Source: a virus
Lineage: Duplodnaviria; Heunggongvirae; Uroviricota; Caudoviricetes
DNA length: 40,869 nucleotides
Reading direction: 5' to 3' (one strand)
Virus record (IMG/VR): IMGVR_UViG_2541047754_000003
Shown here piece by piece: positions 34,836 through 35,538 of this stretch (position 1 is its first letter; every line of letters begins with the position of its first letter). Position numbers and translations under genes: made by a program. The notes below the pieces were generated by a model. The model did no database searches. It saw nothing but the letters and a program-made list of their open reading frames with translations, and was not told where the DNA came from.

Positions 34836-34898
34836 TCACCCATAAGGTAACAAAAATCAAGGATAGTTACCTATGAGGTGCATTTACCTGTTGGGTAA
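34836..34898. promoter_or_regulatory. Tripartite operator (OR-like) between cro-like and repressor genes
   Basis: TCACCCATAAGGTAA (34836-34850), TTACCTATGAGGTGC (34867-34881), TTACCTGTTGGGTAA (34884-34898); first site lies between candidate -35/-10 of the leftward promoter. Confidence 0.7.
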
Positions 34899-34953
34899 TA
34901 TTGCTTTAAATTGAATCATCTACTGATTCATATATGAGACGATTTTCCAGAAA

Positions 34954-35538
34954 ATGAAAAGTATCCAGGACGTCCGCAGGCAAAATCTCAACGACTTGAT
35001 CGACCGTGAATTCAATGGTGTTCAGACGCGGATGGCAGAAAAACTTGGAACTCAGGCAAATCTGGTAAACCGCTGGGCTCTTGGCAAGAAGGTTATCGGC
35101 GACCAGGTTGCGCGAAAAATTGAAGCTGCCGCCAATAAACCACGTAACTGGCTTGATATCGATCGCTCGCTTTCTCAGGAGGGTTTTCAGCCTGTCGGAC
35201 CAAGCGACATTGGTCAGCTGGCGGCTCACAACCTGGAACGCTGGATGAGCGAAAGCCGCGACCTTTCAACACAAGGAAAACTTCACCGCGCATCCGGCGT
35301 CGCCCAGGTGACAATCAGCCGCCTGTTAAACAATGAAGTCAGCGTTTCCATTTCCACCCTGGAGAATGTTGCATCCGCATTCGGGCGTCACGGCTATGAA
35401 TTACTGATTCACCCGCACGACCCTGCGACCATCAACTATGACCGCTCGCGCTACGCATTGTTACCCGAAACCGAGAAAGCAAAGATCGAAAGTTACATTG
35501 AATTTGTCATCAACCAGAACGAAAAAAATAAACAATAA
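34954..35538 (+). CDS. Prophage repressor with two XRE-type HTH domains and no S24 peptidase domain
   Basis: 194 aa; HTH-like segments at N-terminus (TQANLVNRWALGKKVIGDQVARKIE) and mid-protein (SGVAQVTISRLLNNEVSVSISTLENVA); no Ser-Lys LexA-like cleavage module; almost leaderless start. Confidence 0.75.
   Translation: MKSIQDVRRQNLNDLIDREFNGVQTRMAEKLGTQANLVNRWALGKKVIGDQVARKIEAAANKPRNWLDIDRSLSQEGFQPVGPSDIGQLAAHNLERWMSESRDLSTQGKLHRASGVAQVTISRLLNNEVSVSISTLENVASAFGRHGYELLIHPHDPATINYDRSRYALLPETEKAKIESYIEFVINQNEKNKQ

Follow-up and report, generated by a model that had tools for sequence, protein, structure and literature searches.

The DNA analysed here, a window of 40,869 nucleotides, holds a prophage of the phiV10/epsilon15 type (Uetakevirus) integrated at the 3' end of guaA. 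The ORF at 34954-35538 very probably encodes its lysogeny repressor, Rep, a protein that would be left uncleaved on DNA damage and inactivated instead by Ant, a small antirepressor under LexA control. The Rep-Ant switch of the window is already known, its mechanism having been worked out in a relative, the Salmonella phage SPC32H. The window is a textbook copy of this antirepressor-driven lysis-lysogeny switch, for which the SPC32H structure and mechanism were published in 2013 and 2016. The primary accounts are Kim and Ryu (2013, J Virol) and Kim et al. (2016, PNAS).

Judged by its sequence, Rep is a homologue of SPC32H Rep that lies between PR-like and PL-like operators, has a cognate ant and carries no S24 or other autocleavage module. 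What places it with the SPC32H-type repressors is homology over the full length, the lack of an S24 domain or cleavage site, a small ant gene, a predicted LexA box and palindromic candidate operators both between rep and cro and at PL. Gene and protein are laid out as follows:

34954-35538, + strand: rep, master repressor gene, 194 aa, ATG start
Rep residues ~1-72, 73-88 and 89-194: N-terminal XRE HTH, linker, and C-terminal XRE-like domain plus helix

Rep shares its length and two-domain layout with SPC32H Rep (PDB 5D4Z, 5D50), from a phage of the same genus, Uetakevirus. It aligns to 5D50_A with E=4e-42 (window residues 1-190 to 2-197) and to 5D4Z with E=4e-20 (window residues 89-190), and is 42% identical to SPC32H Rep over the full length, with 53% in the N-terminal and 39% in the C-terminal domain. 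The epsilon15 gp38 repressor (AY150271.2) is likewise 42% identical, and MKSI stands at the start of 30 of 30 aligned homologues. The repressors of phiV10 (gp40) and vB_EcoP_ZX5 (ORF21) are 100% identical to the window protein, while the accessory genes near ant differ between the phages; the phiV10 gp40 record already states 'two helix-turn-helix motifs (PF01381); similar to putative repressor epsilon15p38'. In ZX5, which is also integrated at the guaA 3' end, overexpression of ORF21 blocked lytic growth, with no free phage and with lysis-gene transcripts down by ~99.97-99.99% (PMC9782041).

The partner that would inactivate Rep lies far from it in the window:

6230-6249: LexA box, TACTGTATATTTATACAGTT, ending 19 nt before the ant ATG
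6269-6526, + strand: ant, 85 aa, SOS-controlled antirepressor (by homology), phrog_450

Ant shows 88% identity to the ant product annotated in SPC32H (KC911856) and matches PDB 5D50_E with E=4e-47. The box TACTGTATATTTATACAGTT agrees at 18 of 20 positions with the LexA consensus, and its two arms, TACTGTAT and ATACAGT, do not vary among five phages (window, ZX5, SPC32H, epsilon15 and Tyrion); in SPC32H, too, the LexA box precedes ant in the ant-tailspike gap. Within the phage collection, Ant occurs in 35 records and Rep in 36, from the same host genera. The earlier note had proposed that induction takes a route other than repressor cleavage, through antirepressor genes elsewhere in the prophage, and two such genes are indeed present, the small one behind the LexA box. 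This agrees with the inducibility of close relatives: mitomycin C takes the titre of ZX5, which has the identical repressor, from 1e7 to 1e9 PFU/mL (PMC9782041), and prophages of the phiV10 species respond to a DNA-damaging microcin with 21- to 47-fold induction (bioRxiv 10.64898/2026.05.26.727859). For Salmonella prophages, inhibition of the repressor by a LexA-controlled Ant is described in PMC7380047, which cites Kim and Ryu 2013. The small ant is annotated as 'hypothetical protein' in this genome, ZX5 and phiV10, the antirepressor label being given only to the BRO-N protein described below.

The region on the other side of rep from PL contains the following elements:

34499-34513: operator-like site, TTACCTTTGAGGTAC, 1 mismatch, just beyond the terminator 3' of the cro-like gene
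34528-34547: terminator after the cro-like gene
34569-34799, - strand: cro-like gene, 76 aa, divergent from rep
34825-34853, - strand: PR-like promoter that would drive the cro-like operon: TTGTTA, 17 nt, TATTAT, a consensus match only
34836-34850: operator closest to the cro-like gene, TCACCCATAAGGTAA, with 1 mismatch, between the -35 and -10 elements of the PR-like promoter, which points leftward
34867-34881: middle operator, TTACCTATGAGGTGC, 2 mismatches; the syntenic SPC32H site is exact
34884-34898: operator nearest rep, TTACCTGTTGGGTAA, exact, overlapping a conserved TAATAT

The operator motif is the palindrome ATTACC-N5-GGTAAT, whose TTACC/GGTAA half-sites are common to the window and SPC32H. 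A Cro-like gene facing rep across three operator palindromes had been claimed, and both are found at the 154-bp gap. The further claim that the operators are spaced like OR1-OR3 did not hold: three operators do lie between divergent promoters, but their centre-to-centre distances are 31 and 17 bp, whereas the spacing in lambda is roughly equal at 24/23 bp, which helps neighbouring dimers to bind cooperatively. The unequal layout is that of SPC32H, with distances of 30 and 17 bp, where the syntenic middle operator also stands 17 bp from its neighbour. All three positions are kept in Tyrion, SPC32H and epsilon15, and GGTAATAT at the operator nearest rep does not vary among four phages; in the epsilon15 record the stretch from rep to gp39 bears no annotated sites, but the alignment shows operators there. 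A consensus scan did not confidently locate the rep promoter, of which the TAATAT over the 34884-34898 operator could be the -10 element. The Cro-like protein matches phrog_35 'transcriptional repressor' (E=5.6e-13); against Pfam it reached E=0.19 at best, which is not significant, and sequence searches of NCBIfam and the PDB gave no match. Its regulatory function is assigned from position, with family support from PHROG only.

A second set of sites lies downstream of rep:

35559-35578, + strand: intrinsic terminator of the rep transcript; the phiV10 record has a terminator at the same place
35596-35610: PL-region operator, exact, upstream of the -35 element, conserved in four phages
35630-35658, + strand: PL-like promoter of the recombination and early-left genes, TTGACA, 17 nt, AATCAT, 10/12 matches
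35658-35672: PL-region operator, exact, at the transcription start, 62 bp from the 35596 site

Within the PL-like promoter region CTATTGAC is invariant in four phages. The 62-bp pair is shared with SPC32H, which has three PL operators against two clear ones in the window. Further sites are scattered over the prophage:

6178-6192: Rep-type operator with 1 mismatch, lying between the tail-fibre gene and ant
7298-7312: operator, exact, 21 bp upstream of the ORF at 6549-7277 (- strand)
7391-7405: operator, exact, abutting the -35 of a promoter-like site for the isrK/C4/ant2 transcript, 93 bp from the 7298 site
8432-8446: operator, exact, upstream of a YafO-family toxin ORF
25538-25552: operator, exact, between the portal-operon start and tRNA-Arg
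28731-28763: operator pair, 1 mismatch and exact, 18 bp apart, before the terminase small-subunit gene
32491-32567: operator pair, both exact, 62 bp apart, between replication gene P and the early gene that follows

Exact operator sites number 10 in the window against 0.05 expected, and sites with at most one mismatch 15 against 0.60; neither count was reached in any of 100 shuffles. By this motif, candidate operators occupy 13-15 places over the prophage. Many have counterparts elsewhere: the 6178-6192 site is exact in ZX5, SPC32H, epsilon15 and Tyrion; the 7391-7405 site is also found in ZX5; the 25538 site corresponds to SPC32H 3175, Tyrion 3969 and epsilon15 2931-2947, the pair at 28731-28763 to SPC32H 12-26, Tyrion 67 and 85 and epsilon15 12-27, and the 62-bp pair at 32491-32567 to SPC32H 35972 and 36034 and Tyrion 37265 and 37327. 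The genome-wide spread of operators is not new, since the epsilon15 GenBank record already carries repressor protein_bind sites at places that match operators of the window: at terS, in the portal operon, in the ant-tailspike gap, at PL (three) and downstream of the replication gene.

The second antirepressor gene lies close to ant, behind a leader with two small RNAs:

7442-7518, + strand: IsrK-like small RNA in the ant2 leader (RF01394, 56.7 bits; gathering score 50)
7537-7623, + strand: C4 antisense RNA (RF01695, 79.5 bits; gathering score 45)
7672-8358, + strand: ant2, 228 aa, BRO-N fused to an Ant-like C-terminal domain

The ant2 product matches Bro-N (E=5e-20), phrog_130 Ant and, over residues 145-226, phrog_450, and over its last 78 residues it shares 40% identity with the small Ant (E=8e-16). 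It is 82% identical overall to ZX5 ORF4, residues 73-228 being identical. That this BRO-N protein, and not the small Ant, is the main inducer is the proposal of the ZX5 authors, who credit antirepression to it and leave the small Ant out of consideration; overexpression of ORF4 brought the prophage titre down 1000-fold, from 1e9 to 1e6, and reduced the transcripts of the repressor by 75% (PMC9782041). The Ant-like C-terminal domain speaks for the proposal as well, but overexpression does not demonstrate a physiological role, and we regard this alternative as improbable. No convincing LexA box precedes the BRO-N gene, the sole nearby match (7549) having a mismatch and falling within the C4 RNA, and LexA control of this gene was rejected. 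Positions 7580-7588 of C4 (cctttgtag) form a 9-nt complement to 7655-7663, the ribosome binding site of ant2, which would be masked by the pairing. Moreover, phiV10, SPC32H and epsilon15 have one Ant-domain gene, the small one; the phiV10 repressor is identical to that of the window, and those of SPC32H and epsilon15 are homologous.

With the LexA-controlled Ant retained as the inducer, ant2, flanked by a Rep operator, is probably held down by the C4 RNA, as the predicted pairing suggests, and would reinforce the switch or serve anti-immunity. A tentative extension, which we hold to be possible though not the likelier outcome, is a two-tier circuit in which one Rep-binding domain is used twice: the LexA-controlled Ant would be the trigger, and the BRO-N-Ant fusion a self-reinforcing amplifier or an anti-immunity weapon directed at resident phages of its own type. 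With similar reserve, the second tier may consist of the BRO-N-Ant fusion controlled by a Rep operator and by a C4 RNA of the P1 type, together with IsrK. If true, the circuit would combine the SPC32H and P1 immI designs in a hybrid of which no description was found in the accessible literature; the dual antirepressors with a C4 RNA are a modest lead. In P1, the operator Op51 sits at the promoter of the immI module, and the window likewise has a primary-repressor operator at the module promoter. As in P1/P7 immI, the C4 RNA lies directly upstream of the antirepressor gene and is complementary to its ribosome binding site, the C4 antisense mechanism being described in PMC12197685. The window antirepressor differs from P1 Ant1/2 in being a BRO-N/Ant-like fusion, no immI icd gene was identified in the window, and the IsrK-like RNA precedes C4 as in Gifsy-1. 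SPC32H lacks the BRO-N-Ant fusion, the IsrK and C4 RNAs, the YafO-family gene and the 242-aa ORF by ant that are present in the window.

The two XRE-type HTH segments ascribed to Rep by the earlier note were recovered, as Pfam HTH_3 matches two stretches of the protein and the AlphaFold2 model consists of two helical bundles (H4-59 and H83-151) followed by a C-terminal helix, without any beta strand. The bundles are joined by a linker of ~16 residues with pLDDT <50, of which residues 74-83 are predicted to be disordered. Scanned alone against Pfam, residues 89-194 score 25.9 bits with HTH_3 (cut-off 23) and 25.0 bits with HTH_26, and residues 1-80 reach 16.0 bits with HTH_3 (E=0.013) and 20.5 bits with YdaS_toxin, both sub-threshold. 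The N-terminal domain has a pI of 10.3 against 6.6 for the C-terminal one, and its NLVNRW recognition helix, in which N36, R40 and W41 are invariant in 31 homologues, is common to SPC32H Rep. By analogy with that protein we infer that the N-terminal HTH alone reads DNA, and that the C-terminal HTH-like domain is an oligomerisation and Ant-docking module. The best Pfam-scoring HTH of Rep would then be the oligomerisation and docking domain, not the DNA reader, which calls for caution in reading domain scores.

Engineered single-chain 434 repressors bind as covalent pseudo-dimers, and a Rep monomer might in the same way set both of its HTH domains on one palindrome. Two XRE-type bundles on a flexible linker would suit such binding, as would the higher HTH_3 score of the C-terminal HTH and the invariance, among close homologues, of Q118 and R123 in its 'recognition' helix. 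Yet SPC32H Rep has Pro at the position of Q118, the C-terminal domain is near neutral, and the half-sites are identical, forming a true palindrome, whereas the two recognition helices are unlike (ANLVNRW vs AQVTISRL). SPC32H Rep 92-198 was crystallised alone (5D4Z), and the same region is covered in the Rep-Ant complex entry 5D50; the 5D4Z fragment is reportedly a homotetramer and the Ant-binding domain. The DNA-binding pairs in SPC32H are formed by N-terminal domains from different dimers (PMC9638917). Because of the symmetric half-sites with differing recognition helices, and because of the SPC32H structure, we reject the pseudo-dimer as very improbable.

In the mechanism that we favour, modelled on SPC32H, the basic N-terminal HTH of Rep would read each half of ATTACC-N5-GGTAAT, and the C-terminal HTH-like domain would dimerise and tetramerise the protein and also offer the docking surface for Ant. 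As the C-terminal domain would make Rep a tetramer, one tetramer could hold two operators, and the spacings of the operator pairs (31, 62, 62 and 93 bp) fit such an arrangement. Upon DNA damage LexA would be cleaved and ant transcribed; Ant would bind the C-terminal domains of Rep, break the tetramer and release the DNA, whereupon PR, PL and the other operator-guarded units would fire. On DNA, SPC32H Rep is a tetramer that is broken by tetrameric Ant, as outlined in PMC9638917, which describes Kim et al. 2016. Both the Ant-Rep contact and tetramerisation are extrapolated to the window, since the identity of its Rep with that of SPC32H is no more than 42% overall and 39% in the domain that would dock Ant.

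The claim that Rep lacks the S24 Ser-Lys peptidase domain is borne out by every search made. Peptidase_S24 (PF00717) was not found by Pfam at E<=1 in the whole protein or at E<=10 in each half; no Ala-Gly or Cys-Gly bond occurs in the linker or anywhere else in Rep, which has no Cys at all; and Foldseek with the Rep model against the PDB returned matches limited to SPC32H Rep and XRE-type HTH proteins, with 5D50 and 5D4Z at the top. On these results and the all-helical AlphaFold2 model a cryptic S24 domain was rejected, and Rep lacks the C-terminal peptidase and the linker bond of the LexA/lambda cI type. Cryptic RecA-dependent or other proteolysis, such as a cut in the linker that needs no S24 domain, would fit the disorder of that segment and the inducibility of related phages by DNA damage, but is scarcely credible given that Rep has neither S24 domain, beta structure nor an AG or CG site and that the LexA-controlled Ant fully accounts for SOS inducibility. 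The SPC32H Rep homologue reportedly remained uncleaved during SOS in the work of Kim and Ryu (2013). The review PMC7380047 is consistent with this lack of cleavage.

The likeness to lambda cI extends to the divergent repressor and cro-like genes, the three palindromic operators and the second set that lies past the repressor gene at a PL-like promoter, and long-range bridging of operators by a Rep oligomer, as with cI, is probable. The window Rep differs in being without the S24 domain, and RecA-stimulated cleavage, a lambda cI trait, would accordingly be missing from its predicted repertoire; its tetramer would be built by an HTH-like C-terminal domain, and operators stand also at late, tail, lysis-proximal and accessory units. 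SPC32H Ant is said by Kim and Ryu (2013) to be structurally distinct from the Tum, Gifsy and Fels-2 antirepressors, and the repressors of 186, Gifsy-1/-3 and Fels-2 differ in architecture from window Rep. What the switch shares with coliphage 186 Tum and the Gifsy-1/-3 and Fels-2 antirepressors (Lemire et al. 2011, PMC3121763) is its logic, an uncleavable repressor being inactivated by a small protein from a LexA-repressed gene (PMC7380047).

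The repressor (Rep) is a standard member of the Rep-Ant system of phages SPC32H, epsilon15 and phiV10 and is already known, the identical protein having been annotated and tested earlier in relatives. Phages phiV10 and vB_EcoP_ZX5 (ZX5), among others, carry a 100% identical repressor; its residues 1-190 match PDB 5D50 chain A ('Repressor'; E=4e-42) and residues 89-190 match PDB 5D4Z (Rep C-terminal domain). The phiV10 GenBank note on the repressor reads 'two helix-turn-helix motifs ... similar to putative repressor epsilon15p38', and every aligned Rep homologue begins with MKSI. 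Overexpression of ZX5 ORF21, the repressor identical to Rep, left no free phage and lowered lysis-gene transcripts by ~99.97-99.99% (PMC9782041). The immunity region shows 97-98% identity to phiV10, ZX5, PAS61 and other Uetakevirus phages, and 77% to Enterobacter phage Tyrion. Over its right-hand 15.9 kb (25000-40869) the window matches the E. coli 85.0412 chromosome (NZ_CP122448.1) at 100% identity in reverse orientation; there the PGAP annotation has a ~39.6-kb prophage adjoining guaA, with a gene order that agrees with the window ORFs, and yfgH and yfgI at what is the window's left edge. The tail-fibre gene (3317-6073) is an incomplete pseudogene without its C-terminus according to PGAP and an unbroken 918-aa ORF in the mechanical ORF list.

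Repressor and antirepressor features of the window
34954-35538, plus strand: rep, ORF of 194 aa
34569-34799, minus strand: cro-like gene, 76 aa, divergent from rep
6269-6526, plus strand: ant, ORF of 85 aa, matching SPC32H ant
7442-7518: IsrK-like small RNA in the ant2 leader (Rfam RF01394, 56.7 bits, gathering level)
7537-7623: C4 antisense RNA in the ant2 leader, in tandem with the IsrK-like RNA (Rfam RF01695, 79.5 bits, gathering level)
7672-8358, plus strand: ant2, ORF with a BRO-N domain

The earlier note had described a repressor with two HTH segments and no S24 module, and had called for a Peptidase_S24 search; both parts of the description stood. Pfam places HTH_3 in two stretches of Rep and finds no Peptidase_S24 in the full protein at E<=1. 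An AlphaFold2 model built from 31 homologues (mean pLDDT 76.5) is all helix, with bundles at 4-59 and 83-151, disorder in the linker (74-83) and a long helix at the C-terminus. A Foldseek search of the PDB with this model returned the SPC32H Rep entries first and XRE-family HTH proteins next, and no S24 fold among the matches. Neither Ala-Gly nor Cys-Gly occurs anywhere in the Rep sequence.

Although the operator is truly palindromic, the two 'recognition' helices of Rep are unlike each other. The pI is 10.3 (basic) for the N-terminal domain and 6.6 (near neutral) for the C-terminal one. In the N-terminal helix NLVNRW, residues N36, R40 and W41 do not vary among 31 homologues, and both this helix and the TTACC/GGTAA half-sites are common to the window phage and SPC32H; in the C-terminal helix, Q118 of close homologues is Pro in SPC32H. 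From this co-conservation and the solved SPC32H homologue we conclude that the N-terminal domain would be the DNA reader, the C-terminal HTH-like domain having probably been recruited for oligomerisation and Ant docking, its role in SPC32H. When the halves were searched separately, residues 89-194 passed the HTH_3 threshold (25.9 bits vs 23) and residues 1-80 fell under threshold (HTH_3 16.0 bits, YdaS_toxin 20.5 bits); the domain scores would thus point to the wrong DNA reader.

As the earlier note proposed, rep faces a Cro-like gene (a match to phrog_35, 'transcriptional repressor') across three palindromes. The 154-bp gap holds TTACC-N5-GGTAA at 34836, 34867 and 34884, with 1, 2 and 0 mismatches, and when the region is aligned to Tyrion, SPC32H and epsilon15 the half-sites are invariant at all three positions while spacers and flanks drift. 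The proposed likeness to the spacing of lambda OR1-OR3 holds only loosely, because the distances are 31 and 17 bp.

The motif extends well beyond this gap. Exact copies number 10 in the window vs 0.05 expected, and copies with up to one mismatch 15 vs 0.60 expected.

Operator-like sites in the window with at most one mismatch
2949: within a holin gene, probably a chance match
6178: tail-fibre/ant gap
7298 and 7391: isrK/C4/ant2 region
8432: exact, upstream of a YafO-family gene
25538: portal operon/tRNA-Arg gap
28731 and 28749: before terS
32491 and 32553: between gene P and the early gene that follows
34499: past the terminator downstream of the cro-like gene
34836 and 34884: rep-cro gap
35596 and 35658: PL-like promoter region (PL)

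The same motif occurs at syntenic places in SPC32H (18 sites) and Tyrion (15), vs about 0.5-0.75 expected, and both also have the 62-bp operator pairs of PL and of the region following the replication genes. This spread is not new, since the epsilon15 GenBank record already carries 'protein_bind: repressor' features for terS, the portal operon, the ant-tailspike gap, PL (three of them) and the stretch past the replication gene. SPC32H Rep is a tetramer on DNA, with the domain pairs bound to a palindrome drawn from different dimers, according to the account of Kim et al. 2016 in PMC9638917. The pair spacings of 31, 62, 62 and 93 bp go up in steps of roughly three helical turns, and would fit one Rep tetramer bridging two predicted sites. 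A direct half-site repeat, GGTAAC AGACCGA GGTAAC, lies at 35668-35686, just past the PL operator and immediately before the first PL gene, and is kept in Tyrion. PGAP starts terS at 28809, upstream of the 28731/28749 pair; the true start is probably the ATG near 28727, because epsilon15 terS begins 20 nt past its operator.

Induction by a route other than repressor cleavage, through antirepressor genes elsewhere in the prophage, had been anticipated, and ant2 and the small Ant gene bear this out. A LexA-box search of the window found TACTGTATATTTATACAGTT at 6230-6249, ending 19 nt ahead of the ant ATG. Its arms are invariant in all five phages compared (window, ZX5, SPC32H, epsilon15 and Tyrion), and a Rep-type operator stands ~50 bp upstream of it in each. 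Ant matches the 'Anti-repressor protein' chain of PDB 5D50 (E=4e-47), and in a phage collection Rep occurs in 36 records and Ant in 35, from the same host genera. SPC32H Rep reportedly stays uncleaved under SOS conditions, Ant is said to become constitutive in SPC32N through a point mutation in its LexA box, and the crystallised Rep 92-198 is reportedly the domain that tetramerises and binds Ant. When LexA is cleaved, several Salmonella prophages can make an Ant, which inhibits the repressor by protein-protein contact (PMC7380047, as it cites Kim and Ryu 2013), and tetrameric SPC32H Ant binds two Rep dimers, breaking the Rep tetramer (PMC9638917, in its summary of Kim et al. 2016). Mitomycin C raises the ZX5 titre from 1e7 to 1e9 PFU/mL (PMC9782041), and a DNA-damaging microcin induces phiV10-species prophages 21- to 47-fold (bioRxiv 10.64898/2026.05.26.727859).

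Ant is 88% identical to the annotated SPC32H ant, whereas Rep is just 42% identical, across 98% of its length, to the rep annotated in the Salmonella phage SPC32H (33739-34335). That half-sites and NLVNRW are equal despite this divergence raises the question of cross-reaction between the two immunity types at the operator or Ant level. A second exact CTGT-N8-ACAG, CTGTAAACCAGTACAG, lies at 26067-26082 between tRNA-Arg and a 140-aa ORF (26150-26572); it is a weak LexA-box candidate because its interior is not AT-rich.

The C-terminal 78 residues of the ant2 product show 40% identity to the small Ant (E=8e-16), and both match phrog_450. Compared with ZX5 ORF4, whose overexpression lowered prophage titre 1000-fold (PMC9782041), the protein is 82% identical overall and residues 73-228 are identical. 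Positions 7580-7588 of the C4 RNA are complementary to the ant2 ribosome binding site (7655-7663), which is the control mode of P1/P7 immI (PMC12197685). A search before ant2 gave no convincing LexA box, and the gene is absent from phiV10, SPC32H and epsilon15; ant2 is therefore an accessory layer and not the core trigger. The only modestly novel lead is the pairing of a LexA-controlled Ant and a BRO-N fusion under C4 RNA and Rep, the two sharing the same Rep-binding domain.

In the ZX5 record a spurious 'ash family protein' ORF is laid over the IsrK/C4 RNA region. Between ant and the isrK/C4/ant2 cassette, a 242-aa ORF (phrog_6762; minus strand, within 6549-7312) has an exact operator 21 bp upstream of its ATG; its C-terminal half gives weak zinc-ribbon, endonuclease VII and Lar-like matches, its N-terminus is hydrophobic by eye, and in ZX5 a gene is lacking here. 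Beyond ant2, the exact Rep-type operator at 8432 lies 215 bp upstream of a YafO-family toxin ORF (8661-9206; Pfam 25.9 bits vs a cut-off of 25).
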